Assembly: GCA_938004075.1 (NCBI GenBank) | Contig: CALKWP010000127.1 | Span: 1-50,588 of the forward strand | Source of the DNA: an uncultured Methanomassiliicoccales archaeon | GTDB lineage: Archaea; Thermoplasmatota; Thermoplasmata; SG8-5 | Reading direction: 5' to 3' | DNA: 50,588 nucleotides | Shown here: positions 7,410-50,588 of the stretch, one piece after another | Position numbering within the stretch: the stretch's first letter is position 1 | How the letters are laid out: each line of letters begins with the position of its first letter | The notes under the pieces: generated by a model | Seen by the model: only the letters and a program-made list of their open reading frames with translations | The model's database searches: none | What the model was told of the DNA's origin: nothing | Made by a program: the position numbers and the translations under genes

Positions 7410-7562
7410 GATTTCAATCCCGTAACGTGATTTCTTTATTTACATTTTTACATTGCATATTAATTGACATTCAGTGATAATGTATATATATTATATAGGT
7501 ATTCTCCGAAAATACAAAGCGGGCACTCATTTTCGGGAGCCCCAAAAATGGAGGGAGTTGAG

Positions 7563-10500: not shown

Positions 10501-13500
10501 ACATGGCTGAGAACCACGAGGCGCTCCTGTTCACGGCAGAGGCGACAACCGTTGTTGACACAGTTCCCCCGGTCATCGGAACCACCGGAGCTGACCTTCT
10601 CTACATCAACAACATGGGAACTTACGGCGGAACGGCTCCGCCAGTCTGGATATCCACTGAGGTATGGGATGACCACATCGCTGCCGCTGCATGGGCGATA
10701 AGAGACTACCAGCAGTGGGAAGGCACGATGTACTTCAGCGTCGACATCACCGACGATGTGAAGAACGATGCCATGCCAGCGATGTACACATGGGACGGCT
10801 CATGGTACCACATCGACGGCGCGCTCGTCACAGTGAGCGCATCCCCCTACAGCTGGGGCGATGACTTGTTCGTCATGGGTGAAGTCAACGGCGCGAGCGT
10901 CCCGGGCGACGAGCTCGGCAATGCTCTCCCAACACACTATGCGACATTCCAGCCTGACGGCACATATCAGGGAGTCTACTCTACCGAGGGCACTTTTGAT
11001 TATTCCGATGATGTGGAAGTCGTCCCGGTTGGCGGCGAGACATTCCGCGCCTACAGATACGACGAAGGCGCGGGATATATCGCGACAGCAGCAGTTTCAA
11101 CCTATGTGGCCGGCAACGACTGGGTGGTGCTGACGATTTCGCCGGTGCCAGAGGGGCAGTACGCTGTTTGCGTCTCTGCTATGGACATGGCAGGAGCGAC
11201 CGCATGGACCAATGAGACGAGTGGCAACCCGGTGATCACCGTGGATAACACACAGCCGATGCTGAACATAGCAATGGAATTCACTGGAGACCAGAACGGC
11301 AACGGCTTCCTCAACACTGGCGATTGGTTCCTCATCTGGGTGAACGTCACCGACCTGAACGAGGATGCGACCACCATGCCTATCGTAGATGCCGATGAGA
11401 AACTCCTTCCTGACCAGCCAATGGATGGTTGGACATATTACGGTCTGGGCGTATGGGAATTCACCTACATCATCCAGGGGCCCGAATTCACGACTTCTAA
11501 CATCGACGTGAGCTTCAGGGATCTTGCCGGCAACCTTATCGACATGCCTAACGCGCTTGTATACGACATCTATGGTGAGGTCGCAGTGAACTACAATGCC
11601 GGCTGGAACCTCCTTGGCATACCGGTACTCGACCCCTACCTGAACGGCGCCCCATTGGATGAGGCAAATGACCTCGCCGTTGCTGGCGCATTGATGGTCT
11701 CAAAGTGGAACTTCGCAACTCAGAGGTACATCAACTACATCCCCGGATTCCACACCCCGGCGGACCCGCAGAACTTCGCGATCGTCGAGGACGAGGCCTA
11801 CTGGGCATGGATGCCCACCGGCGGAAGTTTCGCCGTCAGTGGCCTCAACCCGGGCGGAAGGAACGTTGCGGTCGACGGCCCCGGCTGGAACATGATCTCC
11901 TACATGGACCCAGTGAATGTCGGCGATGTTGAGACCGACTGGGCGCCATATGTGAGCTGCGGACCGGTGGATGACATAGCATACTACGATGGCACCACTT
12001 TCATCCACTACATATTGCCTGGAACGGTAATGGAACTGACCCCGAGCCGCGGATACTTCGTCTGGAGCGACTTCCCGACGAACATCATGTACAATGCAGC
12101 AGCCTGGAACACCAACACCGGAATCGGATACCCGACCATACAAGCAGCCATAGACAATGCGAACCCATACGACACAATAAACGTGGAATCCGGAATCTAC
12201 TACGAGCAGCTTGTCATTACCAAGCCGCTGACCCTTCAGGGTTCGGGTTCCGGAATCTTCTCGGCAGGGATGGGAAACACTATTGACAAAACGACTCCAA
12301 CTGAAGTAACGACAATTGACGCATCTTCAAGCGGAGGACCGATAATCAACCCGGGTTTCCCTTGGGTAGGCAGCGCAATTGCCATACTGTCCAATGATGT
12401 GACCATTTCCGGATTCGAGGTCAGCAACTCGAACACAGCAGGAGTGTTCGTTTATTATGCAGAGGATTGTCACATCAGCGATGTAAGAGCCACCTACAAC
12501 AACGATGGTGTTGTCTTATTCCACAGTGATTACAATGTGGTTGACAGTTGCGAGGCATCCTCCAATCTCAACTATGGCATATGGCTGGAATTCTCATCAG
12601 ACAATGATATCATTAACAACATGCTTGATTCGAATGACCTTGGTATCAACCTATACGCGGAATCCCCAGGCTTTTGCAATTACAACACTATCCTCGGCAA
12701 CACAATTCAGAACCACGACTTTAGTGCAATATTTATTGAAGGAGATTCGAATGAGGTTTATCAGAACCGCATTTTATACAATTTCTTTGGCGTCCAGGTC
12801 TGGGGCGATTGGAACACAATCGCAAAGAACTCCTTCATCGGCAATTACCATCAAGGAGAAGACGCCTATGGAACGAGCACCTGGAACCTGCCCCTCCCGG
12901 ACGGCGGCAACTACTGGGACATCTGGACATCGCCCGATGATAACGGTGACGGCATTGTGGATGTACCGTACAATTCCTTTAGCTTCATGGACAATTTCCC
13001 CTGGACCACCGAGAACGGGTGGGAGAGCTACGTGCCGGTTGATTTCACTGTCGTAAACACAGATACTGGAGAAGGATTCGCCACTATCCAGGCAGCCATC
13101 GACCACCCCCACACCCTAGACGGCCACACCATCACGGTGGCGGCAGGCCAATACTACGAAGATGTGGTCGTTGACAAGCAGCTTACGATACAGGGGGCCG
13201 GAGCGACCTTCAGCGAGATATATCCAACGGGCGAATCGGCTTTCGATGTGCGGGCGGATTATGTCACGATAAGCGGATTCTTCATGCAAGGCAACCCCTG
13301 CATAATCGTCGGGGCTGATAGCGTCTCTCACAACCATATAACCATCACCGAAAACACTCTCAACGGCGGCCATATCTATCTTGACGGTGTCTGGGACTCA
13401 ACAATCTCGAACAACATAATCGAAGGGAGCGGCTGGGGCATTTACCTGACTGCCTACGAGTTCTATGGCACAACAACCTGCGGGAACATCCAGATAATCG

Positions 13501-13817
13501 ACAACTACATTGGAGGTAGCATGGTGGGCATCGAATTGCACGATGCGACGGGTGGCGGCATTGTCATTCAGGGAAACACATTCCGGTACATTTCCTACAC
13601 CAGCATCTGGGCATATGGTGTGTTCCCAGGTGGCCCTATTTGGATAACCATGAACAATTTCATGGACAACCCGTTCAACGGACATGCCATTAGCGATGAC
13701 TTTTTCACAAACGTCTTCTGGGATCAGAATTTCTGGGAAGGCATAGTGGGCCCTTACATCCCAACAGGATGCGTCACACAGGGCGACTACAACCCGGCAC
13801 CGGCTCCATGGCCGTAA
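7563..13817 (+). CDS. Giant surface protein: prealbumin-like N-domain, three supermodules of about 330 aa, GWNL module, two NosD-like right-handed beta-helix domains
   Basis: The ORF is open from 7464. ATG 7563 is preceded by GGAGGG, and ATG 7548 is also possible; an AT-rich TATA-like stretch lies at about 7485-7500. The signal/anchor is MLVRVQAFVLVSLMIAAGTIAMAPAVLAG. PHAIYGYV module. The supermodule TVDTVAPTIGATTVDK...YRYDEGAGYVAT...VITVDN occurs three times. The C-terminus has PbH1-like repeats (IQAAIDNANPYDTINVESGIYYEQLVITKPLTLQG; a second copy IQAAIDHPHTLDGHTITVAAGQYYEDVVVDKQLTIQG). Confidence 0.8.
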   Translation: MIAEKLNKGMLVRVQAFVLVSLMIAAGTIAMAPAVLAGNGSGKTTFDLFEPHAIYGYVKEDSFALMSGIDVTVTNDRTGEFLQGTSDALGRYDVDLAGLTTGYLAGDLIVVTITSGYNSTTVDTLLPAQRVDIIMDLTDPASAASIVPAYDNTGTWNVDLTGDDVLVNNYASGIYSVDVYVETPATPGTFNLWTTDYDPFIGTFAYTPVDGEGVYYFYSVATDYAGNVEVKSVADDSIIYDITAPTSTVTGPLASDAFTFPLTYDAADPGAAPSGLAWVNIYYSDDGGNTWTFLIDSFGSPQTVTVPADGTYDWYTAAFDNAGNSEPEPPTDATFIEFTTIVDTVAPTIGATTVDKPYINSQGTFGGITPPVMVTTEITDDNLAAGGWAVRDYQQWEGTMYFTVDITNEIMPATYGWDGSWYHLDGVLVTAGISPFFAPAGDLFVMGEVNGATIPGDSIGNNLPTNYVTFQPDGTMPVVYSTEGTLDYSDDVVVAPVPGDTFRAYRYDEGAGYVATTAVYTFTVNPWVSNLTISPVPDGQYAVCVSAIDEAGNTAWTNETTPNPVITVDNFPPQATATGPQTSNVYTFDVTYTWVADPLPSSGLLNITLFYNRESAGWMTYGTDPTPNDGAFPVDVTLIGGDGTYEWCLVAFDNTDNREDAAIATEATTLVDTAAPTIGATTVDKLYFNNQGTFGGIAPPVMVTTEITDDNLAAGGWAVRDYQQWEGTMYFTVDITNEIMPATYGWDGSWYHLDGVLVTAGISPFFAPAGDLFVMGEVNGATIPGDSIGNNLPTNYVTFQPDGTMPVVYSTEGTLDYSDDVVVAPVPGDTFRAYRYDEGAGYVATTAVYTFTVNPWVSNLTISPVPDGQYAVCVSAIDEAGNTAWTNETTPNPVITVDNFAPDADATGPAYSNVYIFDITYTYVADPAPSSGLLNVSLWYNLDGNGWIWFAESSTLDGLFPVDISALGDGVYEWFIAAFDMAENHEALLFTAEATTVVDTVPPVIGTTGADLLYINNMGTYGGTAPPVWISTEVWDDHIAAAAWAIRDYQQWEGTMYFSVDITDDVKNDAMPAMYTWDGSWYHIDGALVTVSASPYSWGDDLFVMGEVNGASVPGDELGNALPTHYATFQPDGTYQGVYSTEGTFDYSDDVEVVPVGGETFRAYRYDEGAGYIATAAVSTYVAGNDWVVLTISPVPEGQYAVCVSAMDMAGATAWTNETSGNPVITVDNTQPMLNIAMEFTGDQNGNGFLNTGDWFLIWVNVTDLNEDATTMPIVDADEKLLPDQPMDGWTYYGLGVWEFTYIIQGPEFTTSNIDVSFRDLAGNLIDMPNALVYDIYGEVAVNYNAGWNLLGIPVLDPYLNGAPLDEANDLAVAGALMVSKWNFATQRYINYIPGFHTPADPQNFAIVEDEAYWAWMPTGGSFAVSGLNPGGRNVAVDGPGWNMISYMDPVNVGDVETDWAPYVSCGPVDDIAYYDGTTFIHYILPGTVMELTPSRGYFVWSDFPTNIMYNAAAWNTNTGIGYPTIQAAIDNANPYDTINVESGIYYEQLVITKPLTLQGSGSGIFSAGMGNTIDKTTPTEVTTIDASSSGGPIINPGFPWVGSAIAILSNDVTISGFEVSNSNTAGVFVYYAEDCHISDVRATYNNDGVVLFHSDYNVVDSCEASSNLNYGIWLEFSSDNDIINNMLDSNDLGINLYAESPGFCNYNTILGNTIQNHDFSAIFIEGDSNEVYQNRILYNFFGVQVWGDWNTIAKNSFIGNYHQGEDAYGTSTWNLPLPDGGNYWDIWTSPDDNGDGIVDVPYNSFSFMDNFPWTTENGWESYVPVDFTVVNTDTGEGFATIQAAIDHPHTLDGHTITVAAGQYYEDVVVDKQLTIQGAGATFSEIYPTGESAFDVRADYVTISGFFMQGNPCIIVGADSVSHNHITITENTLNGGHIYLDGVWDSTISNNIIEGSGWGIYLTAYEFYGTTTCGNIQIIDNYIGGSMVGIELHDATGGGIVIQGNTFRYISYTSIWAYGVFPGGPIWITMNNFMDNPFNGHAISDDFFTNVFWDQNFWEGIVGPYIPTGCVTQGDYNPAPAPWP
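8673..9232 (+). repeat. Copy 1 of a 560-bp perfectly identical intragenic repeat (period 987 bp)
   Basis: By direct reading, 8673-9232 is identical to 9660-10219. The first mismatch is 9233 against 10220, and the flanks are only about 70-85% identical. Confidence 0.85.
9660..10219 (+). repeat. Copy 2 of the 560-bp perfectly identical intragenic repeat
   Basis: See copy 1. The offset is exactly 987 bp (329 codons), so the reading frame is preserved. Confidence 0.85.
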
Positions 13818-38781: not shown

Positions 38782-38823
38782 TTCGTCACTCACATCATGA
38801 TCAATCGAATGCCTGGGCGGTTT

Positions 38824-39029
38824 GCGGGATAATGTAATTTGAGGTTGCATTATCCCGCCTCCGGCGAGGCATCATACGTCGCTCCCGTCAAATCTAACAA
38901 AAGATTGTTCTCGCTCCAGGTCTGCGCTTCGCTAACATACGGCTGTGTGCCCTACGACGATATAACGTTCTCATGTGCTTTGTGAATAAACGTGTTTGGC
39001 GGTTACGCCCGCCCTTGCGCCCCTCCGCT
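38824..39029 (+). repeat. Structured repeat element, copy 0 (3' portion only: hairpin 2, conserved core, variant-1 3' arm)
   Basis: An 11-bp hairpin GCGGGATAATG/CATTATCCCGC (38824-58) is followed by CTCCGGCGAGGCATCA. After that come an identical run of about 50 nt (38910-38959 = 46152-46201) and one of about 42 nt (to 39029), both shared with copy A. The copy lies immediately downstream of dphB at the compositional boundary. Confidence 0.8.
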
Positions 39030-39229
39030 TCCAACGAATTTGCTTCGCTCATTCGCCTGAATTTTCTCGCCATGCTCGAAAATGACCCCCTTTCTGCGGA
39101 AAGCCCGCATGCTCGGGGCGCCTTGAATACTTTGGGCCGATGCAATCATACTTATTTAAATTGTCCATTGGAAGGGGTGCTGTCCATCGCGAAGTCGGCA
39201 TCATAAGGTATACGCCTCCGTCTGTGAAG

Positions 39230-40135
39230 TCAGGGGTCATTTTTTCCTTCCGCATTTCCTTGAGTAATTAAGTTCCTCTCTTTTCGCCTTTTTATATACA
39301 AATTGAAAAAGGCGAACGTTTCGATAGATACCCCGATAATTATAAGACAAAAGGACAAAATATAATTACCCTCGTTGAAATACCACAACATTACCCCCAT
39401 TGTCCAAATAATTCCACCGATTATTAAATATAATATAAACAGATGGGAAACCTCTAATTTTTTTCTTTCTTGTTCAGTTGTCACCTTTATATCTTGTTTG
39501 CTTGATTTCTTACCAGGAATGTCTTTATCCTTCAGTTCTTTTAATTCTTTTATACGATATCCCCTCTGCTGTGCGAATGAAAGGAACCAATGAGTACTAG
39601 TAAATAAAATATTTCGTAATAATATGATGAGTGGAATGAATATTGCAACTAAGAACACTATAGGGGTCCAACCTCCGACAATAGGCAGTAGCCAGTATCC
39701 AATTATCACCGAGCAGAACAAACAACCATAGAAGAATATCCAAGCAATAATTGCAGACAATAACTGACCTGGAACTCTGTTGTGCTTCCCGTGTATTGTG
39801 ACGAACCTAATTATTTCGTTAAAATACTCAAGATTTGCCTCTTCATTCCCTGCGAAGAGGGATTTGTTAATGAGTTCTTTAAGGACATTAATGTCTTGAC
39901 AGGCTTCAAGTCCCGGTTCCATTGCAAGTAGTATAAAGCTATATGCGATTAGGTAACTTAACATAATCTCAAATGGATAATCCAAACCGAATAACAGAAA
40001 ATAGATTGCTGGTAGGATAAAGCCAAGAAAGAAAAGGATATAAAATGCCTTGCTTATGCGGTCTCCCTTAGTCCAGATTATTTGCGATATCTCTCTGAAA
40101 TGAGATTCATCTTCTAAAGGGTATTCCTTGTTCAT
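39230..40135 (-). CDS. Polytopic membrane protein, putative immunity partner of the Rhs toxin
   Basis: About 300 aa with at least 6 hydrophobic segments. ATG 40133-40135 overlaps the Rhs TAA by one base (TAATG), which implies translational coupling. AT-rich. The immunity role is inferred from position only. Confidence 0.6.
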   Translation of the reverse strand: MNKEYPLEDESHFREISQIIWTKGDRISKAFYILFFLGFILPAIYFLLFGLDYPFEIMLSYLIAYSFILLAMEPGLEACQDINVLKELINKSLFAGNEEANLEYFNEIIRFVTIHGKHNRVPGQLLSAIIAWIFFYGCLFCSVIIGYWLLPIVGGWTPIVFLVAIFIPLIILLRNILFTSTHWFLSFAQQRGYRIKELKELKDKDIPGKKSSKQDIKVTTEQERKKLEVSHLFILYLIIGGIIWTMGVMLWYFNEGNYILSFCLIIIGVSIETFAFFNLYIKRRKERNLITQGNAEGKNDP

Positions 40136-43100
40136 TACAAACAACCTGCTTGTCTAAGACGCCAAGCTCCATATAATCCAGAGATTAATATCCCTATCAA
40201 GGGCAATATAGTTCCCCAAGAGATAAATTTAAGTCCCATAAAAGCGCTTTTTGCTATTACCTGCCACCAAGGAAGTGATTGTATCCATTTGATACTAATC
40301 CAAACGAATATACTCAATGCAATGCCTGCAAATGCCCATATATCACTGAAAATGGCTGCGGTAATTGTACTCCATTTCCACACGGTCATTAAATTGTAAG
40401 ACAAGCTTTCTATGAAAGAAAGTTTTGCAGCAATACCAATTGCGGAAAAGAACATATTTATAAAAAACATAGACCATTTTAAAGCACATAGGCCTGCAAA
40501 ACTAAGCAATCCAGTCGGGTCCACTCGATTAACTGGATTCCATCCAACATATGCATACATATTGGGGCCATCCACCATTCCTGCCGGGTCCTGCTGCATG
40601 AACCTCCCGATGTCGGGCGAATATGCCCTGGCGCGGTAGTGGTACAGCCCGCTTTCAGCGTCATATTGCCGACCGGTGAACTGGTGCGGGTTGTAAACGA
40701 GTTCGTTGCGAACCAACGCCTCCCCGAAGGGCGTGTAGCGGTACGTGTTGACCACATTCTCGCCCGAGTCAATAAGTTCTGAAACGCTGCCCAGCCCATC
40801 ATACAGATAATAATACTTCACCCCGTCGATTGAGATGCTGATCGGATGGTCCACGAATATGAGCTTACCCCCGCCGCAACCGCTGCCGCACTTCTGGCCG
40901 CAAGCGCTGGCAGAAGGATGTGTGAATCTCACGAGCTTGTTGTCCCACAGCTCGTAGACCACACTCTCGCCGTCGTAGAGATAGGTGAGGTTGACCACTC
41001 CGGCCTTGCTGACCCTGCGCCCGTCCAGGGCGTAGCCGTATGTTGTGGCGCGGGTATCAACGAGGCTCGGGCTGGTTGAGGGGGCGCTGTTCAGCGTGAC
41101 CGGTCCTTCTCCAACCGAATTTTGCTCGTCACCGCCGCCTCCGCCCCCGACAGTGCCCACCGAGACCAGCATGTTCTGTTTTTGGCCGTTGAGGAAGGTG
41201 GATTGGTAGCCGTAGTATGTATCTCCTTCGACCATATTTCCGTTGTTGTCGTAGATGTAGGTTGTGGTGCCGGATTGCAGCAATTTGTTTTCATCGTCAT
41301 ATACTGACGTTGTAGTTTGACTGCCGCCACTTGAAATCTGGATGGTCGCAATCATGTTGTTGCGGAGGTCATACTGGTACTGTGTTTTGCTGCCGTCCGG
41401 ATAACTCACTCCGATCAGCCGGTTTTCAGCGTCGTATGCATAATTTGTGGTTGCGCCATTTGCCTCTTTTACACTTATACGGTTCGCGTTGTAATTGTAC
41501 CCGTATGTGAAACTCGAAATGATTTGCCCATTTGACTTGACATTCTCTATCTTTGTGAGTACATTCGATTTGGCATATGACTGATATATCTTTGTCCCGG
41601 TCGGATAAGTGGTCTGGACAAGTTGGCCAATGGCATCGTACACATAAGTTGTAATGCCACCGCCAGGAGCGATTACTGATTTTAAACGATTGAGGGCATC
41701 ATAGGTGTAGGTGGTGATCAATCCGAATTGGTCGGTCATTGATATTATGTTTCCATTTTCATCGTACTGGTATGTGATTATATACTGCTGAGAAAGGACA
41801 CCTTCGTCAACAAAAACCCAGGTTTCCCTAGTAACCCGGCCCAATAAGTCAAATTCTTTATTCTGGACAGAAAGTCTTGGGGGTGTGGGCATTTGGGGTC
41901 TTGGTGGGTATATGTATATTTCGTAGTTTGGCGGATAATTGTAACCCTGCCTCTCATTCTGTGTAATCTGGTATGTTATATAGACTGTAATATCGCCGGG
42001 CATTCCCATCTTGGTCACTCTGTTCAATGCATCATATGTGTATGATGTGTTCTGGTCGTTCGCATCTATATATTCAATAAGATTGCCGACCTCGTCATAG
42101 GCCCATGAGTATGTGGAACCCAATGGCGATGTTTCGCTGATTTTTCTGCCCAGCAGGTCATATCCATATTGCCATGTTGAATCTAAGTCTCCGTCATATT
42201 GACTGACGCTCACAAGGTTGCCAATGGAATCATATGAATATCTCGTGTCAGAACCAGCCGCTCCTAATTCCCTAACGCGATTTCCTAGACTATTATACTC
42301 ATAGATTGTCTCATAGTTCATCCGGTCAATGCGTTTTGTCATTCTACCTTCTGCATCATATTGATACCTGATGGCCAGGTTATAGGGGCAATATTCTTCG
42401 ATTATCCTGCCAAGTGCATCATATGTATTTGCCCAGAAGTTGCCAAGTTTATCTTGTTTCTTTATCATGTTGCCGCTGGCATCGTATGTGTAAATATCGA
42501 AAAAGCCCAGCGCATCCGTGATTTTGACAACTCTGTCCATCGCATCATATTCATAATTGGTAATTGCACCGCGCTTGTCTGTTTCTTTAATCAGATGTCC
42601 TTTCACATATTCAAAGGATTTTGTTTTAAGAAGGGCATCTCTCTCAGTTAATTTATTACCGAATACATCATAAGTGTACGTTGTGACCGCCGCATTTCTA
42701 TCAGTAAAACTAAGAAGATTTCCCATAGCATCATATGTATATGATTCAATATTATTCAACGAATCTATCGTTTGAGTCATTCTGCCAAGCGCGTCGTATG
42801 TGTATTGAGTTACGAATCCTCTTGCATCGGTCATTGAAACCTTCTGATTAATGGTGTTATATGAGAAGAATGTGTGGTAGCCCAGAGCGTCAGTTTGTTC
42901 GACGATGTTTCCATGAGCATCATATGTGTATGTAGAAATTCCACCATTCGCACTCGTTTGAGACGTCATGAGGCCATTTGAACTGAACACATATGATGAA
43001 GTATACCCTTCTGAATTGGTTAGACTCAATGGGTTGTTGTTCGCGTCATAGACATAATTGGTTTCTTCACCATTTTTATCAACGGTTTTGATTGGAATAG

Positions 43101-45792
43101 AAAGATAGAGGTTAGGTGTGGCAAAGGTGCTATACACCGTACCTGTTTTTTTGGTTAAGGGATCTTCCCTCTCTATCAGATTCCCAACGGCATCATATTT
43201 GCTTTTCCAGCTAAATCCGCGAGCGTCAGTTTCAAGTTCGGGTTTTAAATCTTTATTAAATGTGATGCTGGTTGAGGTTGTATCGGGGTTAATTATCTTT
43301 ACTGCTGCACCATTTGAATCAAATATTCTTTTTGTCGATTGAGTGTTTGCATTTAATGTCGTGGTTGTGTGACCGGGGTAAACATAAGTGGCTTCATATT
43401 CTACGTAGTACTGGGTTTTCTGTCCTGAATCAAAATAATATTCACCGACGGTGCATTTGGAAATCTTAGAGCACCAATCTGAAGTAGAAGTATATTGATA
43501 TTCTTTGTACAGGCCCAATGGGTTTATAGTCATCACCATTTTGTGTATGGTTGCTGGAGTTAGGATATTATATGAATATCTATATTCGTTGTTCATCGCA
43601 TCTTTTCGGGTTCTTAAATTTCCATTAATATCATAGGTATACGTGTTGGTCCTTCCGGCCGGATCCACTACTGATGTAATTAGATTGCCAGTATAAATCA
43701 AATTAAGATATAACCCAGAATCATCCTCTACTTTAATCAGCCTATAATTACCATCATATGACATGTGAAGTGAGTTGCCGTTTTTGTCTACTATTTCATT
43801 CAGTAAACCTTGTGAACTAAATACCTTTACGCTACCATCTGTAAATCTCAAATTGTAAAAAGTGCCAGCACTAATTATATCTATATTAACACCGGGTGGA
43901 GATGAATATGCACCATTTCCCAAGCTTTCAAATTCGTAAAAGCTTCCATCTCCTGCAATGAAATCCACAAATCCAGTTCTAAATTGTAATTTTTCACCGT
44001 AGTTGAATTGCCAACCATACCCGAATGGTCCATTAATTTCCGAGTTTAAACTATTATAAATTCGTTCCAGTTTTATTGTATGCCCTAATGCTTTGAGCTC
44101 GATATCCAGACTTGTCACCGCGAGATTGCCATTAACCTGATTGATGCCGTCCTGATACTCGTTCCAAGCTACTTTACCTTTGGAACCCACGATGTTTTTT
44201 ATTCTGGGGTCGTAGTTGCTAGACCTTTCGCCGGGAATTTCATCGTCCGATGTTCCTAAGATGCCGTCCTGACCAGCTCTTTCAAATATCATATCTTTGT
44301 CTTTGTCTTGCCAGCCATCATAGAGGCCGTCTTGGCTTGTGTCAGATAGGTAATTTGCTGTCGTGACATCATCAACAATTATTTTTGCATAATTAATATT
44401 AATCTGACCGCCGTTTGATGAAGTGAATTTAAATGGTATGGATATTGTTGTGGCAGCACTGTTTGTATAATACTTGAAGATGTATTCGTTCATTGCTCCT
44501 CGGATTGAACCCAGCCTTAATGTCGCAGTAAAGGGCATTATTGCCCTCCAATCGATGGTGCCATCATTGCCAACATCTAATTGTAAATCATTGATTGGAA
44601 GAGTTGTGCCTGATGCAGGGGTCAGTTCAATCACGGCATTTTGAATAAGGTAATTATTAAACGATGAAACAGTAAACGATAATGTTGTAATGGTGGATGG
44701 GTTGGTTGATATGCCTGTAATCGGATTGAAAGCTGTTTTTGTTAATTCAGTAACGGCATTTGTAACGGGCTGTGTGTCTTCGCTTAGATCTGTGAGCCCG
44801 TCACCGTCGCTATCCGACTGGCTTGCGTCTGCCTGGGTGTAAACACTGAAATGTTCAACATATGCCCACACATAGCCATCATCTTGGTTTATGCCAGTAT
44901 ATTCTCCATTTTCCCAATCCGTTACAACTACCCAATTATCGCCGACCTGTCTGTACATTCTCAAACATTCGCTGGTCAGCGTTGCCGGAACATTTTCAGT
45001 GATTGGCATCTTAATTATTGCTTTAAATTCGGTTGACGTATCAACGTTTATGTCAATATATTCTCCAGTTGAAACACTAAAATTACCGCTGGTTGATTCT
45101 ACGGTCGGGACAATGTTATCTTCTCCGGAATAATCGACAGCAACTGTTACTCCGAGGTCATTGTCTGTGGCGATGACATCCGGGGTCATGTCAATCGCGA
45201 AATTGTCCGTGTTGTAAATCATCGGTTCGGCATCGCTGATGTCTGGAATCAAATCACAATCAATGTCAGCGGTTAATGCTAATGAACCGGAGCGGACCCA
45301 TGAAAAAGAAACAATTCCTTCGCCCGCAACCATGTCCAGATTGGGCGCAACTGGCCACGGTGCAGCCCCACCGTATCTTGGAGATGTGAATGAAATACCA
45401 TGATCTGAACTGCCTGCATACCAGTATTTGTTATCGTGCCAGGCTTCCTCGATCCACGACACATAGATTATTCCGGTGGTCTCATCAATAGAGACCTGGG
45501 GCCAATGAGAATTTAATTCGGAATAACTAATCTGAACGGGGGAATTCCATGCGTGCCCAGGAATTTGGGAACCAATATCATTTTTATAAAATACTTCAGC
45601 TTGCGTGGATATATCATTTTTAATTAATTGGCTATAGACCATGTGAGTATTTCCATTCTCATCAATGAGCGTATCCTGCTGTATAATCATCCCCTCTGAG
45701 CCACGGGCTGCTGCCGCAGGCTGGAATACCATAGCCATCATCGTCAAAACACACAATACCGATATTGTCACGGTTAATAACTTATTTTTCAT
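40135..45792 (-). CDS. Rhs/YD-repeat polymorphic toxin (1885 aa) with a hydrophobic C-terminal tip
   Basis: The protein contains, in order:
- signal peptide MKNKLLTVTISVLCVLTMMAMVFQPAAAA
- Asp-box-like SSDHGISF
- Ca-binding-like DSDGDGLTDLSED
- dozens of YD repeats (YTYDxxGNL, YxYDAxGR...)
- Rhs core end YRARAYSPDIGRFMQQDPAGMVDGPNMYAYVGWNPVNRVDPTGL
- a C-terminal region of about 120 aa with 4 hydrophobic helices. Confidence 0.9.
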   Translation of the reverse strand: MKNKLLTVTISVLCVLTMMAMVFQPAAAARGSEGMIIQQDTLIDENGNTHMVYSQLIKNDISTQAEVFYKNDIGSQIPGHAWNSPVQISYSELNSHWPQVSIDETTGIIYVSWIEEAWHDNKYWYAGSSDHGISFTSPRYGGAAPWPVAPNLDMVAGEGIVSFSWVRSGSLALTADIDCDLIPDISDAEPMIYNTDNFAIDMTPDVIATDNDLGVTVAVDYSGEDNIVPTVESTSGNFSVSTGEYIDINVDTSTEFKAIIKMPITENVPATLTSECLRMYRQVGDNWVVVTDWENGEYTGINQDDGYVWAYVEHFSVYTQADASQSDSDGDGLTDLSEDTQPVTNAVTELTKTAFNPITGISTNPSTITTLSFTVSSFNNYLIQNAVIELTPASGTTLPINDLQLDVGNDGTIDWRAIMPFTATLRLGSIRGAMNEYIFKYYTNSAATTISIPFKFTSSNGGQININYAKIIVDDVTTANYLSDTSQDGLYDGWQDKDKDMIFERAGQDGILGTSDDEIPGERSSNYDPRIKNIVGSKGKVAWNEYQDGINQVNGNLAVTSLDIELKALGHTIKLERIYNSLNSEINGPFGYGWQFNYGEKLQFRTGFVDFIAGDGSFYEFESLGNGAYSSPPGVNIDIISAGTFYNLRFTDGSVKVFSSQGLLNEIVDKNGNSLHMSYDGNYRLIKVEDDSGLYLNLIYTGNLITSVVDPAGRTNTYTYDINGNLRTRKDAMNNEYRYSYNILTPATIHKMVMTINPLGLYKEYQYTSTSDWCSKISKCTVGEYYFDSGQKTQYYVEYEATYVYPGHTTTTLNANTQSTKRIFDSNGAAVKIINPDTTSTSITFNKDLKPELETDARGFSWKSKYDAVGNLIEREDPLTKKTGTVYSTFATPNLYLSIPIKTVDKNGEETNYVYDANNNPLSLTNSEGYTSSYVFSSNGLMTSQTSANGGISTYTYDAHGNIVEQTDALGYHTFFSYNTINQKVSMTDARGFVTQYTYDALGRMTQTIDSLNNIESYTYDAMGNLLSFTDRNAAVTTYTYDVFGNKLTERDALLKTKSFEYVKGHLIKETDKRGAITNYEYDAMDRVVKITDALGFFDIYTYDASGNMIKKQDKLGNFWANTYDALGRIIEEYCPYNLAIRYQYDAEGRMTKRIDRMNYETIYEYNSLGNRVRELGAAGSDTRYSYDSIGNLVSVSQYDGDLDSTWQYGYDLLGRKISETSPLGSTYSWAYDEVGNLIEYIDANDQNTSYTYDALNRVTKMGMPGDITVYITYQITQNERQGYNYPPNYEIYIYPPRPQMPTPPRLSVQNKEFDLLGRVTRETWVFVDEGVLSQQYIITYQYDENGNIISMTDQFGLITTYTYDALNRLKSVIAPGGGITTYVYDAIGQLVQTTYPTGTKIYQSYAKSNVLTKIENVKSNGQIISSFTYGYNYNANRISVKEANGATTNYAYDAENRLIGVSYPDGSKTQYQYDLRNNMIATIQISSGGSQTTTSVYDDENKLLQSGTTTYIYDNNGNMVEGDTYYGYQSTFLNGQKQNMLVSVGTVGGGGGGDEQNSVGEGPVTLNSAPSTSPSLVDTRATTYGYALDGRRVSKAGVVNLTYLYDGESVVYELWDNKLVRFTHPSASACGQKCGSGCGGGKLIFVDHPISISIDGVKYYYLYDGLGSVSELIDSGENVVNTYRYTPFGEALVRNELVYNPHQFTGRQYDAESGLYHYRARAYSPDIGRFMQQDPAGMVDGPNMYAYVGWNPVNRVDPTGLLSFAGLCALKWSMFFINMFFSAIGIAAKLSFIESLSYNLMTVWKWSTITAAIFSDIWAFAGIALSIFVWISIKWIQSLPWWQVIAKSAFMGLKFISWGTILPLIGILISGLYGAWRLRQAGCL

Positions 45793-45840
45793 GTTAATTC
45801 CCCGCTATTAATTTCATTGCTTGAATATTCAAACCTAGGT

Positions 45841-45861
45841 TATAAAGGTTTTGTGAGATTA
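45841..45861 (-). promoter_or_regulatory. Putative archaeal BRE/TATA promoter of cassette 1 (conserved cassette promoter motif)
   Basis: The minus strand reads ATCTCACAAAACCTTTATAACCTAGG, about 50 nt upstream of the Rhs ATG. The same CTCACAAAA + TATA arrangement recurs at 48245-48267 and 50421-50440. Confidence 0.5.
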
Positions 45862-45880
45862 CTCATATTTTCTGTACTAA

Positions 45881-46272
45881 CGACCGCCAAACACTACGGA
45901 TTATTTGCACATTAAAAACGGGCACACAGCCTTAGCCAGTAGACGCTTGCCCCAAGTGAATGCACAAGCCCGGATATAAGGCTTGTGTTCACACTCCCCG
46001 TCCCTTCGTTGTACTCGTGATTGCTCACCGTAACGTTTGGAAGATGGTGGTTCGCAACCGTGCGGTTTCCTGGATTAGCGTCATTGAGAGGACAGAAACC
46101 TCCGGCGAGGCATCACGAGGGCCTATCGTCGCATACATCAAAAAATAGCTCTCGCTCCAGGTCTGCGCTTCGCTAACATACGGCTGTGTGCCCTACGACG
46201 GTAAAACGGTATCATGTGCATATGCTCCGAAACGTGTTTGGCGGTTACGCCCGCCCTTGCGCCCCTCCGCTG
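45881..46272 (+). repeat. Structured repeat element, copy A (variant-1 5' arm, core with two hairpins, variant-1 3' arm)
   Basis: The 5' arm 45882-45950 is complementary to the 3' arm. Paired blocks are CGACCGCCAAACAC / GTGTTTGGCGGT at 46235-46, GGGCACACAGCC at 45921-32 / GGCTGTGTGCCC at 46183-94, and TGCACAT / ATGTGCA. Hairpin 1 is at 45964-45988 and hairpin 2 at 46065-46101. The conserved block GGCGAGGCATCACGAGGGCCTATCG is at 46105-46129. Confidence 0.85.
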
Positions 46273-46443
46273 GCCCCTGGCTACGCCAACCCGCCTGCTC
46301 AAGGCGCTTGGATTATTTGAAAATAATCGAAATTAATGCATTGCTAATAATCCATTCCGATGATGCCGTTCGTTATCAGGCGCACGTACACTGATGAATT
46401 GCTCTCATCCACAACGATAAGATATCCGCATCCGTCCGTGAAT

Positions 46444-46899
46444 TCAGGGGTCATGGGGTTCTTCCTCGGTTATTGATAGAATTATGGAAGGGGGATATAA
46501 TGGTGGCGGAACTCTGGCCATCATATGATTTTGAACATAACAAGAGGATAATAGTGTGAAAACATAAATTAATGAAATCCATGTAAATAAGGCGACGACA
46601 GTACTAATCACTAGTATAATTAGAGAAAGATTGGAGGCTTTATTTCTGTATACTTCATTTGATGAATAATAATGCATATTTATTCCTATACCAAAACCTC
46701 CGATTACTGTGACACTAATTATTATCAAATATGGGTGTATAATGAACGGAAGCACAAAGGGAATAAAAAGAGAAATAAGAACAATAATTAATGAAAAAGC
46801 CAGTGACATAATATCAATCCAATTAACTTGATGTTCTTCGTTATAATCGAAGCTGACAGGTTTTAATGATTTGATATCGCTCCTATTTAAAAGCGGCAT
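46444..46899 (-). CDS. Small polytopic membrane protein, putative immunity partner of the orphan Rhs tip
   Basis: ATG 46899 is preceded by GGAGGG 8 nt upstream. The ORF-track start at 46941 overlaps the upstream gene by 26 nt. There are 4 hydrophobic segments. The last codons and 25 nt of 3' flank are conserved with the 39230 gene. Confidence 0.6.
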   Translation of the reverse strand: MPLLNRSDIKSLKPVSFDYNEEHQVNWIDIMSLAFSLIIVLISLFIPFVLPFIIHPYLIIISVTVIGGFGIGINMHYYSSNEVYRNKASNLSLIILVISTVVALFTWISLIYVFTLLSSCYVQNHMMARVPPPLYPPSIILSITEEEPHDP

Positions 46900-46915
46900 A
46901 ATCTTGACCCTCCAT

Positions 46916-48103
46916 TCAACCACATGTATAGGTCGTTCCAAGGCCTTTCAAATACCACCAAAACAGGTTACACCAGGTATATGCGGTATATCCCGAATAG
47001 AAACGAATATCGCGTCCTACGCGATTTGCAACTTTGTCACATTGAGATTGGGCAGGTGTGTTTGTTTTTAATACTTTCACATCAAAATATTCCTTTGTAT
47101 CTGTAATCTTTTGAGTATAATAATTGGAAAGACCACAAAGATTAATCATTGATGCTGACCAAAGGCAATGTTGATATTTATCATTTTTTCCACCATCTGG
47201 ATCAGATGCCCCATGCGCGGTAATTCCGGCATTAACGGCACACATATTATACGCACATATAAAATAAAATAAAGTGATTGAAATAAGGCTTAACAACAAC
47301 ATTCCGCTCGGATCTACCATGTTGGTGGGGTTATTCCCGACATACGCGTACATATTCGCCCCGTCCACCATCCCGGCCGGGTCCTGCTGCATGAACCGCC
47401 CGATACTAGGCGAATATGCCCTTGCTCGGTAATGATAGAGGCCACTTTCTTTATCAAATTGTCTCCCAGTAAACTGGTACGGATTGTAAACCGTTTCCTC
47501 CTTTACCAACACACTCCCGAAAGGTGAGTACCTGTAGAAATTGACAATAGTCTCATTGGCGTCAATGATCTCAGTAACGCTGCCTAAACCGTCGTATAGA
47601 TAAAAGTACTTAACACTATCAACTATAATTTTAATGGGGTGGTCCACAAAACTGGAGGTAGTGAACCTCACTAGCATATTGTCCCACATCTCGTAAATCA
47701 CGTTCTCGCCATCGTAGAGGTATTTCATGTCCACGTGGCCGGCTTTTCCGACTCTCCTGCCATCGAGCGCGTAGCCATAGGATGTGGCCGGGGTGGTGTC
47801 GTCCTGTGGTTCAGATGGTGCTGTACTGCTCATTGTAACCGGTTCTTCTCCCGCAGACTGCTGTTCATCGCCACCGCCTCCGCCGCCAATCGTTCCGACG
47901 GATATGAGCCCGTTCACCTTGTAGCCGTCCAGGAAAGTGGATTCCGTCAGTCGATTTTTCCTTGGAGATTTATAAAAGATGTATGACTCTCCGTCATCTG
48001 TTCTGATGACGTCGTTCGAAAATGTCCAGCTCATATAAACTGATAATGTATCCTGGTTTACATGGATGTAATACCAACCACCTTCAATAATCTCAATGGT
48101 CAT
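46916..48103 (-). CDS. Orphan Rhs C-terminal module (core end plus distinct toxin tip), 395 aa
   Basis: It is homologous to the last part of the full Rhs (STFLDGYKVNGLISVGTIGGGGGGDEQ...YGYALDGRRVGKAG...YRARAYSPSIGRFMQQDPAGMVDGANMYAYVGNNPTNMVDPSGM). After DPSGM comes an unrelated Cys-rich tip of 125 aa. The N-terminal roughly 50 aa are not Rhs-like. Confidence 0.85.
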   Translation of the reverse strand: MTIEIIEGGWYYIHVNQDTLSVYMSWTFSNDVIRTDDGESYIFYKSPRKNRLTESTFLDGYKVNGLISVGTIGGGGGGDEQQSAGEEPVTMSSTAPSEPQDDTTPATSYGYALDGRRVGKAGHVDMKYLYDGENVIYEMWDNMLVRFTTSSFVDHPIKIIVDSVKYFYLYDGLGSVTEIIDANETIVNFYRYSPFGSVLVKEETVYNPYQFTGRQFDKESGLYHYRARAYSPSIGRFMQQDPAGMVDGANMYAYVGNNPTNMVDPSGMLLLSLISITLFYFICAYNMCAVNAGITAHGASDPDGGKNDKYQHCLWSASMINLCGLSNYYTQKITDTKEYFDVKVLKTNTPAQSQCDKVANRVGRDIRFYSGYTAYTWCNLFWWYLKGLGTTYTCG

Positions 48104-48244
48104 GCTCTTCCTCGCTGATGGAGGGAATGACCCCGGTGATATAAAAAGCTAGCGGGTTTTGGGTCAGTATATCATTCCCTCCCATTTTTTGATGTGCGGT
48201 ACAATGCTGATTCCCCTAAATTTTCACATATTGATAGGTAAACT

Positions 48245-48267
48245 AGGTAATAAATATTTTGTGAGAT
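48245..48267 (-). promoter_or_regulatory. Putative BRE/TATA promoter of cassette 2
   Basis: The minus strand reads ATCTCACAAAATATTTATTACCTAGTT, the same motif and order as at 45841-45861, about 150 nt upstream of ATG 48103. Confidence 0.45.
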
Positions 48268-48311
48268 CTCTCCTATAACTCTCTATTGTTATTATGTTAA
48301 AAATGGATATT

Positions 48312-48622
48312 ACGACCGCCAAACACTACGGATTAAATGCACATTAGAAACGGGCACACAGCCTTAGCCAGTAGACGCTTGCCCCAAGTGAATGCGAAAG
48401 GCAGATAATAAGCCTTTCGTCCCTGCTCCCCGTGCCTGCGTTGTACTTGTCATCGCTCGCTGCGCTCGCAACCGTGCGGAAACCTGTCTTTACGGCGCTG
48501 GCAGGTCGGTTTCCTTCGGCGAGGCATCACGAGGGCCTATCGGCGATAATAACAAAAGATTGCTCTCGGCCCAGCTTCGCTACGGAGTGCCCTACGGAAT
48601 AACGACGAGGGATGGCCTACGA
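48312..48622 (+). repeat. Structured repeat element, copy B (variant-1 5' arm, core, variant-2 3' arm)
   Basis: The 5' 84 nt are about 96% identical to copy A. Hairpin 1 is CGAAAGGC/GCCTTTCG (48395-48419) and hairpin 2 is GGAAACC/GGTTTCC (48478-48514). The conserved 25-mer is at 48518-48542. The 3' arm (GGAGTGCCC at 48584-92, AGGGATGGC at 48608-16) differs from variant 1. Confidence 0.85.
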
Positions 48623-48970
48623 TATTTTTTGTAGCTGATCTAAAGTTATAACTCCTGTAAATACATGCTTACCATATATCACTGTTGGGGTAATTTTGAT
48701 GCCTTTTAATTTAGCATGTATATTGTCCCAAAAACTTGCCTTATCATAAATTACTAATTTCAAACCCTGGTGTTTCGCGAAATCCTCAATGAGTTTCTTT
48801 ACCTTGACTTCATCATCGGATAGCCATTTGTGGATGGAAGTAATGAGTTGTTCATTATATCCGCCGATGCTGCGACGATTGCGAACTTCTTTGATATGTT
48901 CTAAAGGTCGTGTATCTGTCTGGATGTGTTTTTTTGTATGCAGAAACAATTCAATCTTTTTTGGTATCAT
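48617..48970 (-). CDS. Small hypothetical protein (possible thioredoxin-like fold without CxxC)
   Basis: 117-aa AT-rich ORF. The C-terminal LKLVIYDKASFWDNIHAKLKGIKITPTVIYGKHVF resembles the beta-alpha-beta...PT..beta layout of glutaredoxin/thioredoxin-fold proteins but has no redox cysteines. The fold assignment is weak. Confidence 0.5.
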   Translation of the reverse strand: MIPKKIELFLHTKKHIQTDTRPLEHIKEVRNRRSIGGYNEQLITSIHKWLSDDEVKVKKLIEDFAKHQGLKLVIYDKASFWDNIHAKLKGIKITPTVIYGKHVFTGVITLDQLQKIS

Positions 48971-49034
48971 TCATCGCCCTCATAAATAAAGGAAAAGGAG
49001 GGCGATAGGGATATATTTTCGCCCTCATTTAAGA

Positions 49035-50336
49035 TTACAGTCCTATACCGCAGAAAGCAGGATTGTAGCAAAACAGGTTATTTGCACAACACGGCTCGCT
49101 CGGATCGCTTGTATCTAATAGGGTGGCTACAATTTTTCCACTTTCTATTCTTGAACCCATCGCCTCCCAACCGTAATAGGTTCCAATGTTTGGTTGCCCG
49201 GAGTCAATAATTGCTGTTATTTCAGTTTCATTGTTTATTGAGTCGTAGTGCGTAAAAGCATAATTTCCTGGGCTATATATAGAATACTGGAAGAACTGGT
49301 TTAATTCACCATTATTGACCAGGAACGTTGTCAGGAATCGATTGTTCTCTGGTGTTATTGTTATTACACCATTATAATTTATCTCAAGAATACTGTACTC
49401 GAAATGTTGTCTTGTGCTGAGGATCTCAAGAGTTGCCTGTACATACTGTCCTTCGTAGTCTGTAACGGTAAATTGCTCCACTCTTTTGTGCCCATTTTCA
49501 GAAATTATTGTCGAACTAGCCACAAAATCCGATTGTTGGGTATGATCCGCACCCCACATAGAAAATTCATTCGTGTATGGGTTCAGCGAGAAACCTATCT
49601 CGGGCGTTGTGATAACCTTAATCATAATTGTTTGGGAAGCAAGGTCACTCTGCCTCGTTGCACTAAGATAAAATACGGGATTTGTGGTTGTATCAAGTGG
49701 TATTATTGCACTCTCACTCAACTGCACGTTACCTCCTGGTACCGCAGTAACTATTGTTGGCGGCAGGCCTCCAGCAAAGCCCCATCCTTCTGGTATTGTT
49801 GATTCATCTACAGATACAGTGAATACATCTCCAAAGAGCATTTCATTTTTTAGAAAGACTGGCACACTAATTGAAGTTCCCGGTGTTGCTCCAACCGCAA
49901 TCAAACATCTGTGAAATTCATTGTTGTTTTCATCAACTTCCGTTATAAGATTGGTAGTATCAGCAATTGCCTCAAAATTTACCTGGTGTGTGTTAAGGGC
50001 AACAATGGTAGTTTCAATTGCTTTTATTTCTCCTGCTCTAATTGGCGGCTCTACCCATAATTGATATGTTTCAGTTGCCTCTTGCCAAAAGCCAGATAGT
50101 TCTGCATAATGAAGCTCAGCCCAAAATCCATGTTGCACCGATGCTTCACCAATATTCTCCACTGTTACAGTAACCGGTAGAGAATCACCCGTTTCTACGG
50201 GATACACCCAACCAATTCCCCTCACAATTAGGTCTGGTTGTCCTTGTTTTGCCTGAACACTTGATGGTAGAACCATCATTCCACTCAAAAAAACCATGCT
50301 CACAATTATTATTGCTCCAATTCGTGTTTTCTCCAT
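49035..50336 (-). CDS. Secreted CARDB-like domain protein with a Cys-rich C-terminus
   Basis: Signal peptide MEKTRIGAIIIVSMVFLSGMMVLPSSVQA. PDLIVRGIGWVYPVETGDSLPVTVTVENIGEAS matches the CARDB-type motif DL.V......G....V.V.N.G. The C-terminus is EPCCANNLFCYNPAFCGIGL. Confidence 0.7.
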   Translation of the reverse strand: MEKTRIGAIIIVSMVFLSGMMVLPSSVQAKQGQPDLIVRGIGWVYPVETGDSLPVTVTVENIGEASVQHGFWAELHYAELSGFWQEATETYQLWVEPPIRAGEIKAIETTIVALNTHQVNFEAIADTTNLITEVDENNNEFHRCLIAVGATPGTSISVPVFLKNEMLFGDVFTVSVDESTIPEGWGFAGGLPPTIVTAVPGGNVQLSESAIIPLDTTTNPVFYLSATRQSDLASQTIMIKVITTPEIGFSLNPYTNEFSMWGADHTQQSDFVASSTIISENGHKRVEQFTVTDYEGQYVQATLEILSTRQHFEYSILEINYNGVITITPENNRFLTTFLVNNGELNQFFQYSIYSPGNYAFTHYDSINNETEITAIIDSGQPNIGTYYGWEAMGSRIESGKIVATLLDTSDPSEPCCANNLFCYNPAFCGIGL

Positions 50337-50420
50337 GTTATTCCTCCTCCTGTTTCATCGGTGTTCATATCCGTTTCGATGCGTGGTTATGAAACCTAGA
50401 GTTCAAAAAGTTCTTCATAT

Positions 50421-50440
50421 GATAAATAACTTTTGTGAGA
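50421..50440 (-). promoter_or_regulatory. Putative BRE/TATA promoter of cassette 3
   Basis: The minus strand reads TCTCACAAAAGTTATTTATC, about 85 nt upstream of ATG 50336. It shares the CTCACAAAA + TATA layout of the other two cassettes. Confidence 0.4.
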
Positions 50441-50481
50441 AAACTTAAGATACTTTTAAGTACTCTGCGAAAAAGATTGAT

Positions 50482-50588
50482 ACGACAGCCATCCCTTAAC
50501 CGTTTCGTATTAACCGGGCACTCCTCCGCTACACCAAGTGAATGCGAAAGGCAGGATTTAAGCTTTTCGTCCATGCTCCCCGTGTCTG
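50482..50588 (+). repeat. Structured repeat element, copy C (variant-2 5' arm plus start of core; cut by window end)
   Basis: GCCATCCCT (50488-96) and GGGCACTCC (50516-24) are exact complements of copy B 3' arm blocks. They are followed by the conserved CCAAGTGAATGC and hairpin 1 CGAAAGGC/GCTTTTCG (50545-69), which has one G-T pair on the + strand. Confidence 0.8.

Follow-up and report, generated by a model that had tools for sequence, protein, structure and literature searches.

The 50,588-nucleotide (nt) contig CALKWP010000127.1 from an uncultured Methanomassiliicoccales archaeon, which we call the window, carries on its minus strand a full-length rhs gene (the main gene, 40135..45792) encoding 1885 amino acids (aa) and, near it, an orphan rhs C-terminal open reading frame (ORF) of 395 aa (46916..48103), which joins the end of an Rhs core to a different tip and is followed by a small gene for a membrane protein. 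We suggest that the orphan is an Rhs toxin/immunity module and that it is probably the survivor of a second Rhs operon from which the full-length gene was deleted. An orphan rhs toxin/immunity module in an archaeon is a known kind of module; what is specific to this lineage is a conserved junction/head module, a relic promoter, and an orphan that precedes the main gene. More surprising than the orphan module is the array of structured repeats and cassettes in which both genes lie.

The orphan and the main gene share only the end of the Rhs core

The two rhs genes are homologous only over the core end, as the initial annotation of the window had stated: BLASTP aligns orphan aa 54-272 with main aa 1530-1769 (E = 6e-92, 60% identity), and outside orphan aa 54-272 there is no significant match to the main protein. 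The orphan, which is defined by the ORF list, BLASTP, profile TIGR03696 and matches in the Protein Data Bank (PDB), consists of a head (aa 1-40, 48103-47984), a vestigial YD repeat (YIFYKSPRKNRLTE; aa 41-54, 47983-47942), the Rhs core end, closing in DPSGM (aa 55-268, 47941-47300), and the tip (aa 269-395, 47299-46919), all on the minus strand. TIGR03696 (Rhs_assc_core, cut-off 32.5) scores 100.3 bits over orphan aa 192-268 and 89.4 bits in the main protein, and orphan aa 107-270 match the C-terminal regions of Rhs and TcC proteins in the PDB (E = 5.5e-19). The main protein, delimited by Pfam and TIGRFAM profile matches and a hydropathy scan, has a signal-like N-terminus, DUF6531, 14 RHS repeat stretches (PF05593, 295.9 bits; TIGR01643, 230.4 bits), the Rhs core and a tip; the same two repeat profiles find nothing significant in the orphan, where just the vestigial repeat is left. 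A simple hydropathy scan places a hydrophobic segment at aa 5-23 of the main protein and none in the first 60 aa of the orphan, that is, no export or anchoring signal; with neither such a signal nor a shell, the orphan appears unable to deliver its own toxin. Two Asp residues of the orphan, at aa 241 and 264, are nearly invariant (at least 90%) in our alignment A2 of relatives, and this pair, 23 residues apart, may be the counterpart of the catalytic pair of TccC3.

At the nucleotide level the shared block, a putative crossover substrate delimited by BLASTP, nucleotide alignment and G+C content (GC), covers 47300-47944 in the orphan and 40507-41218 in the main gene (both minus strand). It runs from STFL(D/N)G through GGGGGGDEQ (orphan 47861-47887, main 41122-41148) to DPSGM in the orphan (47300-47314) or DPTGL in the main gene (40507-40521), and beyond these last motifs nothing aligns, the homology not extending through the tips. 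In the approximate limits and the last two motifs of the block, as in its GC enrichment, the first description held: GC is 0.51 in the orphan block and 0.58 in the main block, compared with 0.37 in both tips and in the head and 0.41 in the remainder of the main gene. The core block has a GC of 0.54-0.59 in every related locus examined, so the enrichment is a property of the family and not peculiar to the window pair. The DNA identity of the block, put at about 80% in that description, is lower when measured, at 67% over aligned columns and 70-73% within ungapped sub-blocks, and the longest exact match between the two copies is 22 nt.

A Cys/Gly-rich segment of the main gene (40864-40920) had been read as an insertion. 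It is present in nearly all relatives, their orphans included, and is missing only from the window orphan and from one relative, P0009, which makes it a deletion in the orphan and not an insertion in the main gene. In the main gene and at the equivalent positions of P0002-P0024 the segment forms a loop, for example HPSASACGQKCGSGCGGGK or HPVKSGSCGSCGSCG, which constitutes a clade-wide insert in the Rhs core end and may bind metal or form disulfides.

The tips and their partner genes

The two tips are unrelated, and their overall description as a Cys-rich tip containing KYQHCLWSA and a hydrophobic one stands, with some change of detail. The orphan tip measures 127 aa and begins with a single hydrophobic helix, after which comes a helical domain with 7 Cys; the main tip measures 123 aa and has at least three strongly hydrophobic segments. 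An exhaustive HMMER search with the orphan tip against 1.84 billion representatives, which reckons clusters at 50% identity, gave one true relative, P0109 (39% identity), as the only other cluster; P0109 is itself an orphan within an array and is followed by a small ORF with three transmembrane (TM) segments. Four further listed matches were inspected, proved to be low-complexity repeat proteins and were discarded, and two weak matches, P0113 and P0114 (E ~4e-4), lie outside the four that this inspection covered. The sole family signal of the orphan tip is a match of aa 296-366 to Pfam DUF6973 (PF22322; 24.1 bits, E = 3e-5), which falls below the gathering cut-off of 27 and is taken as a lead only. 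A word-index homology search returned no relatives for the orphan tip and none for the main tip, and a PDB sequence search gave no match over the orphan tip. AlphaFold2 (AF2) models the tip as all-helical at low confidence, with a predicted local distance difference test score (pLDDT) of 52.7 for the tip alone and of 61.3 for the full orphan, in which the tip lies at 50-70; both models are too weak a basis for comparing folds.

The orphan partner (46444..46941, minus strand) has 165 aa counted from a TTG and 151 aa from an ATG at 46899, the likelier start. Strong TM segments number at least two, and the gene ends (..EEPHDP*) within a conserved junction that is described below. The main partner (39230..40144, minus strand, 304 aa) has at least five TM segments and ends ..GKNDP*, also in the conserved junction. 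The two are mutually unrelated multi-TM proteins, in agreement with the earlier statement that each tip has a different membrane partner, and the orphan partner is presumed to be the cognate immunity protein. In related loci, NosD/right-handed beta-helix proteins occupy the immunity position after some orphans (L001 5788-6912, L025 3059-4225, L002 13063-14964); a 2117-aa protein in the host region of the window (7464-13817) also has a NosD/beta-helix domain.

Probable remains of a second Rhs operon

The origin of the orphan can be approached from the sequence that precedes it. A promoter-like motif of the form TCTCACAAAA-NN-TTTAT(A/T)A occurs upstream of the orphan (48266-48250), of the main gene (45858-45842), and of a neighboring cassette that begins with a CARDB gene (50440-50424), at distances to the ATG of ~150, ~50 and ~90 nt, respectively, and its agreement with the archaeal consensus of transcription factor B recognition element (BRE) and TATA box suggests that it is a promoter. 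Upstream of the orphan this motif (TCTCACAAAATATTTAT) opens a segment (48203..48266, minus strand; repeat families D12 and D17) that copies the 5' untranslated region (5'UTR) of the main gene up to GGGGAAT(C/T)A(G/A)C, after which an ATT replaces the main ATG: the orphan copy ends GGGGAATCAGC-ATT (48216-48203), the main gene GGGGAATTAAC-ATG (45803-45790). About 55 nt past the ATT there begins a 55-nt relic of the 3' end of an immunity gene (48093..48147, minus strand), which closes in ..ITGVIPSISEEEHDH where the orphan partner has ..SIILSITEEEPHDP, and which ends in a junction, GAGGAAGAGCATGACCATTGA, that carries the ATG of the orphan. A junction of the same type precedes the relative P0002 in locus L024. 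The orphan had been credited with its own promoter, and a promoter-like motif is indeed present upstream of it, but the motif reads as a relic, left over with a copy of the main 5'UTR that starts in ATT.

Further, the orphan and main cassettes are paralogous on both flanks (repeat families D2, D4, D9 and D15-D17), with an identity of 81-85% over the promoter and the 3' tail of a structured element to which we return below, and of 80-100% over the head and the 5' part of that element. Together, the relic upstream and the paralogy of both flanks with those of the main cassette lead us to see in the orphan what is left of a second Rhs operon. In the course of events that we propose, this second operon once stood in tandem upstream of the main operon, and a deletion removed its full-length rhs gene along with most of its first immunity gene. 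What would have been left behind is the promoter and 5'UTR with its ATT start, the 55-nt relic of the immunity gene, and the head-bearing orphan with its own immunity gene. The relic promoter would still transcribe the orphan and its partner, and the cell would stay immune to that type of toxin.

Several points weigh against this proposal. The inferred deletion draws on ~120 nt of relic sequence, transcription of the orphan operon from the relic promoter is supposed from the sequence, and the toxin and immunity roles are suggested by the architecture of the genes and by known Rhs biology (PMC3482391, PMC3150448). The partners of the two known homologues of the tip, the window orphan and P0109, are without detectable similarity to each other. 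The flanks, at 80-100% identity, are more alike than the core blocks, at 67%, which points either to homogenisation of the flanks as a repeat family or to a later exchange of the Rhs content, and the history may be more complex. Lastly, the head shows constraint at the protein level, and in L024 a head-bearing orphan comes first after the pst/phoU genes without a main gene; both observations, which are taken up below, fit a stand-alone function better than a pure relic.

Exchange of tips among relatives

The closest homologues of the orphan are dozens of proteins of 240-520 aa annotated as 'RHS repeat-associated', many of them from metagenome-assembled genomes (MAGs) of Thermoplasmatota; relative to one of these, P0002, the window orphan is short of ~70 aa of shell. 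An exact-sequence look-up of the orphan itself found no other contig. The loci of the relatives are classical arrays in which the main gene is followed by an immunity gene and then by orphan/immunity pairs (L001, L002, L026 and L027), with two orphans in L001 and at least seven in L002. The main shell of L001 matches window 44233-40510 at 85% identity and, precisely at the DPxGL codons, gives way to a different tip, which implies that the tip was replaced in one of the two lineages. Within L001, moreover, the main gene (~3011-3725) shares perfect tracts of 173 nt and 77 nt with the orphans at 4832-5545 and 7008-7695, in blocks that are otherwise 79-85% identical, and such tracts are a signature of recent gene conversion. 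By these alignments, the core block is a real substrate of exchange in the clade. Tip replacement and gene conversion are thus seen in L001, while the window pair has no such tract.

The initial annotation had proposed that the orphan serves as a reservoir of tips. In its strong form, this would mean that the orphan regularly replaces the main tip by homologous recombination in the GC-rich block and so switches the toxin type within the population, which we regard as unlikely. The shared block does end exactly at DPxG(L/M), L001 offers both a replaced tip and long perfect conversion tracts, and there is a precedent in Salmonella Typhimurium LT2, where an orphan with demonstrated recombination is 95% identical to the main gene over 522 bp (PMC3967940). 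Against those figures, however, stand the 67% identity and the 22-nt longest match of the window pair. The arrangement of the genes is also unfavorable: orphans lie downstream of the main gene in L001, L002 and L026, whereas the window orphan lies upstream of it in the direction of transcription, so that one simple crossover between these direct repeats, far from arming the main gene, would delete its 5' 4.6 kb and leave a head-shell fragment with the main tip. Nor were joints between main gene and orphan seen in the Logan contigs of X1, a 2017 anaerobic-digester metagenome that holds the island at 99% identity or more in short contigs only, although its word depth of ~2 is too low to exclude them. 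What remains of the reservoir claim is that exchange takes place in the clade, as in L001, and it is doubtful for the window pair.

As the survivor of a second operon, the module may nevertheless be a possible donor of a tip together with its immunity gene. Donation would take two crossovers, one at the 5' end of the module, within the GC-rich core block, and one at its 3' end, within the junction/head, and with a block identity of 67% it must be rare in the window genome.

A conserved head and junction

The orphan had been described as having a non-Rhs head of about 50 aa. Some 40 aa are indeed non-Rhs and are followed by the vestigial YD repeat, but they belong to a conserved junction module and are not a private domain. 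These first 40 aa recur at the N-terminus of the closest relatives, P0002-P0009, joined to the shell at differing YD-repeat positions, and the head sequence is also found as remnants after both partner genes of the window. The remnant after the orphan partner (46344..46454, minus strand; MTPEFTDGCGYLIVVDESNSSVYVRLITNGIIGMDY*) has an ATG that overlaps the partner stop (ATGACCCCTGA), breaks off where heads usually join the Rhs core, and is 81-90% identical to the orphan heads of L001. A second remnant (MTPDFTDGGVYLMM..) follows the main partner (39200..39240, minus strand) and belongs to repeat family D15, in which 39203-39251 and 46417-46465 are 80% identical.

Heads start inside a conserved junction, GAGGAAGA(A/G)C(CC)CATGACC..TGA, which can also be written GAGGAAGAxCCCCATGACCCCTGA, and in which the ATG and the stop codon of the immunity gene before it overlap. 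It occurs after every immunity gene of the Rhs clade (L001, L024, L025 and L026). Because the last codons of the immunity gene belong to the junction, immunity proteins as unrelated as the TM protein of the window and the NosD beta-helix protein of L001 both end in ..EEPHDP*. The simplest reading is that head and core together form one conserved spacer between variable tip-plus-immunity modules, and that this spacer flanks each module with homology arms and links successive genes by translational coupling. The head may also have a function within the protein.

The heads are probably translated, as judged from two properties of their sequences: in ten heads from five loci the reading frame is kept, all indels being multiples of 3, and synonymous codon differences number 284 in frame compared with 162 and 115 in the other two frames. 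Both properties would be expected if the head-bearing short Rhs proteins were a functional class in their own right, which free the tip by self-cleavage at DPSGM or are themselves loaded or exported with the aid of the head, the orphan then being an independent toxin gene and not a fragment; the same idea gains from the ATG and the GAGG-type sequences built into the junction, from the promoter-like motif, and from the orphan-first array that follows housekeeping genes in L024. We nevertheless give it only a slim chance. The N-terminus of the orphan has no signal peptide or TM segment, several heads have no ATG at the equivalent position, and AF2 gives for the head no more than a hairpin of low confidence; the points of fusion to the shell fall at differing YD positions, with independent internal deletions, as would be expected of fragments, and the frame could persist merely for translational coupling to the immunity genes.

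In L024 (5057-7728), the head-orphan P0002 (484 aa) lies directly after a pst/phoU operon, with an AT-rich upstream region of its own and the same junction. Next come an immunity-like gene and a further head-orphan, and no full-length rhs gene is found on that side.

Comparison with known Rhs systems

The orphan rhs-CT/rhsI modules of enterobacteria (LT2 STM0292; E. coli Rhs; PMC3967940, PMC3150448) resemble that of the window in consisting of a core-end fragment with a different toxin tip and a small immunity gene next to it, and in that homology with the full-length gene ends at a DPxGL-type motif. The window differs from them in its archaeal host, in the position of the orphan upstream of the main gene, and in a block identity of 67% and not 95%. 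Its orphan also has an ATG, a conserved and probably translated head and a promoter-like motif, whereas bacterial orphans are usually without initiation signals, and unlike those of enterobacteria the modules of its clade are bounded on the 3' side by a second conserved block, the junction/head.

Among archaea, Rhs polymorphic toxins are regarded as rare (PMC3482391). The Rhs toxin/immunity cassettes of Methanosarcina acetivorans (Zhang et al., 2012; PMC3482391) come from an archaeal lineage different from the Thermoplasmatota/Methanomassiliicoccales-like lineage of the window, and the head/junction, the Cys/Gly loop of the core and the structured-repeat array are features of the window that are not described in that report. 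With respect to the TcB-TcC/Rhs cocoons (8h8a, 6h6e and 4igl), orphan aa 107-270 correspond to the autoprotease region and the part of the shell nearest the C-terminus, but the orphan makes up roughly a fifth of a shell, not enough to enclose its tip.

The window locus and its relatives show a Thermoplasmatota clade that runs a full Rhs system, with a main gene, arrays of orphans, tip replacement and gene conversion. In the junction/head it has a second conserved boundary, which would let tip-plus-immunity modules be swapped by double crossover. The locus also counsels caution, as an orphan need not be an active reservoir; the homology here is too diverged for that, and what was taken for the orphan's own promoter looks like a leftover.

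An array of structured repeats and cassettes

The low-GC island in which both rhs genes lie is the end of one array of structured elements, all on the minus strand. The first copy (45910..46214; nhmmer E = 1.8e-81, covariation) lies between the orphan cassette and the main rhs gene and has a further conserved 5' extension to ~46300. The second (48342..48627; nhmmer E = 5.6e-69, covariation) lies upstream of the orphan cassette, a third (50516..50587), upstream of the cassette of CARDB and thioredoxin-like ORFs, is cut at the window end, and a decayed terminal copy (38858..38975; nhmmer E = 3.5e-20; repeat families D4 and D16) marks the junction of array and host. The promoter-like motif adjoins the element, and the start of the array lies beyond the end of the contig.

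Pattern scans and a profile search (loci L004-L023 and L028-L048) turned up 137 hits to the element, whole or in part, from 34 sequence sources, most of which are MAGs of Thermoplasmata/Methanomassiliicoccales and metagenome contigs. The viral contig collection contained no copy, and Rfam 15 gave no match at the gathering threshold anywhere in the window, nor at E <= 1 within 38700-50588. Adjacent elements are on the same strand in all pairs (103/103), with a median spacer of 566 nt, and the spacers hold one or two co-oriented ORFs that encode PIN, MazE/AbrB, HicA, ParE, Ig-like/fn3 surface or small TM proteins. The element is ~250-300 nt long, its core being defined as the stretch from GAUGCCUCGCCGGAG to GCAUUCACUUGG, and its invariant motifs are GATGCCTCGCCGGAG, CGCACGG, ACGGGGAG and GCATTCACTTGG. 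A consensus fold from an alignment of 30 sequences has 32 pairs, 15 of them with compensatory changes; 94.9% of its cells are paired, as opposed to 82% in shuffled alignments (0 of 500 are as high) and 31-47% with slid partners. The predominant U-G pair points to the sense strand, and in compact cassettes only 10-25 nt separate the invariant 3' end of the element (GCAUUCACUUGG) from the start codon of the ORF that follows. Shared sub-modules are combined in the copies like a mosaic, which would be expected from recombination among them. The other Rhs loci of the clade are without the element.

Our best guess is that the element is a cis-acting structured leader or inter-cistronic RNA which also serves as a substrate of homologous recombination, though it may act at the DNA level in the manner of an integron. 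On a more far-reaching view, which we offer as tentative, the orphan and main operons are two cassettes of an undescribed archaeal array system in which the element acts as a leader or processing RNA or as a shuffling substrate, and the head-bearing Rhs is expressed. Literature searches found no described equivalent of the array, and nothing on DUF6973, which is no proof of novelty. If the array is new, it would be a tractable entry point to the organisation, expression or shuffling of accessory and conflict genes in these archaea.

The array recalls the sedentary chromosomal integrons (Vibrio VCR), which likewise consist of co-oriented short cassettes rich in toxin-antitoxin genes, with a repeat that is conserved within the array and in secondary structure. 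That the two Rhs operons were captured as mobile cassettes, site-specifically, at the structured repeat would agree with the uniform orientation and close spacing of the elements, with a cassette content (PIN, MazE/AbrB, HicA, ParE) typical of chromosomal integrons, and with the way in which arrays close in decayed copies beside convergent housekeeping genes. It would also agree with two loci, L038 and L009, in which a co-oriented tRNA-Phe of 89 nt (2045-2133 and 4724-4812, respectively), probably with an intron, stands ~600-750 nt upstream of the first element. The position of the orphan and its promoter would then stem from insertion of a cassette, and not from a duplication followed by a deletion. 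Yet capture of this kind seems very improbable to us. No recombinase or integrase was seen near the arrays among the best 25 of 81 families for 82 neighboring ORFs, and no IntI was found; the repeat, at 250-300 nt, is far from the 57-141 nt of attC, has long invariant single-stranded motifs and does not have the R/L box layout. Unlike an attC site, moreover, it favors the sense strand, as its U-G pairs indicate, and ends directly before downstream start codons. The mosaics fit ordinary homologous recombination, and the absence of the element from the other Rhs loci of the clade also speaks against such capture.

Several ideas about the element were tried and given up. A long-range helix, GGGCACAC/GTGTGCCC, obtained by folding one copy, is not kept across copies. 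Arrays do not end in a fixed 'half-site' of the kind that an att-type crossover would predict, since the last copies vary in where they stop, or have an altered 3' hairpin. An IS200/IS605 right end or a guide-RNA scaffold found no support: the tails 3' of CACTTGG fall in few conserved classes and are not arbitrary flanks, and there is no tnpB nearby. A 2414-nt 'skip' in X3 that joins two copies of the element reflects similarity of the repeats and not a rearrangement of the window genome.

Among the individual loci, the terminal copies of L005 (2631-2860) and L007 (1890-2160) exchange the 3' hairpin and GCATTCACTTGG for a longer hairpin that ends in GCA(T/C)ACC and have no ORF downstream. An IS200 Y1 transposase gene beside the start of one array (L038 889-1416) looks incidental. 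L013 (DHFN01000049.1), an 8-kb contig labelled Anaerolineales bacterium UBA4823, has three copies of the element with cassettes between them and is probably a mis-binned archaeal contig.

Three unrelated sediment metagenomes from 2025 contain fragments that are nearly identical to the orphan tip and partner (46912-47150 and 46385-46663) and to the structured element; for tip and partner, conservation across other metagenomes is 97-99%. This conservation, together with uninterrupted ORFs of 395 and 165 aa and intact Rhs core motifs, leaves hardly any credence for the idea that the orphan is a non-functional, decaying pseudogene, to which the loss of ~70 aa of shell (relative to P0002) and of the Cys/Gly loop and the mutated upstream start codon of the former main gene might otherwise point.

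Genomic context of the island

The window has two parts. Positions 1-38850 have a GC of ~57% and contain archaeal housekeeping genes; among these, dph5 (diphthine synthase) and the gene of the archaeosine radical SAM protein RaSEA both score above curated cut-offs, from which we conclude that the host is archaeal, and Trm5b-type and dCTP deaminase genes are also present. From 38858 to the end of the window GC drops to ~42%, and all genes are on the minus strand. They are transcribed in the order CARDB, thioredoxin-like ORF, orphan rhs, orphan partner, main rhs and main partner. The cassette that precedes the orphan thus comprises the gene of a CARDB protein (50336-49035) and, as its second ORF, the thioredoxin-like one (48970-48617), both on the minus strand. 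At the other end of the island, dph5 (37987-38781, plus strand) is convergent with the array and faces its terminal element copy.

Four consecutive very large ORFs, of 2037, 2117, 889 and 3062 aa, occupy 788-25739 on the plus strand of the host part. Their only signals are Ig-like (Big_5) and NosD/beta-helix domains, or none, and they probably encode giant surface proteins.

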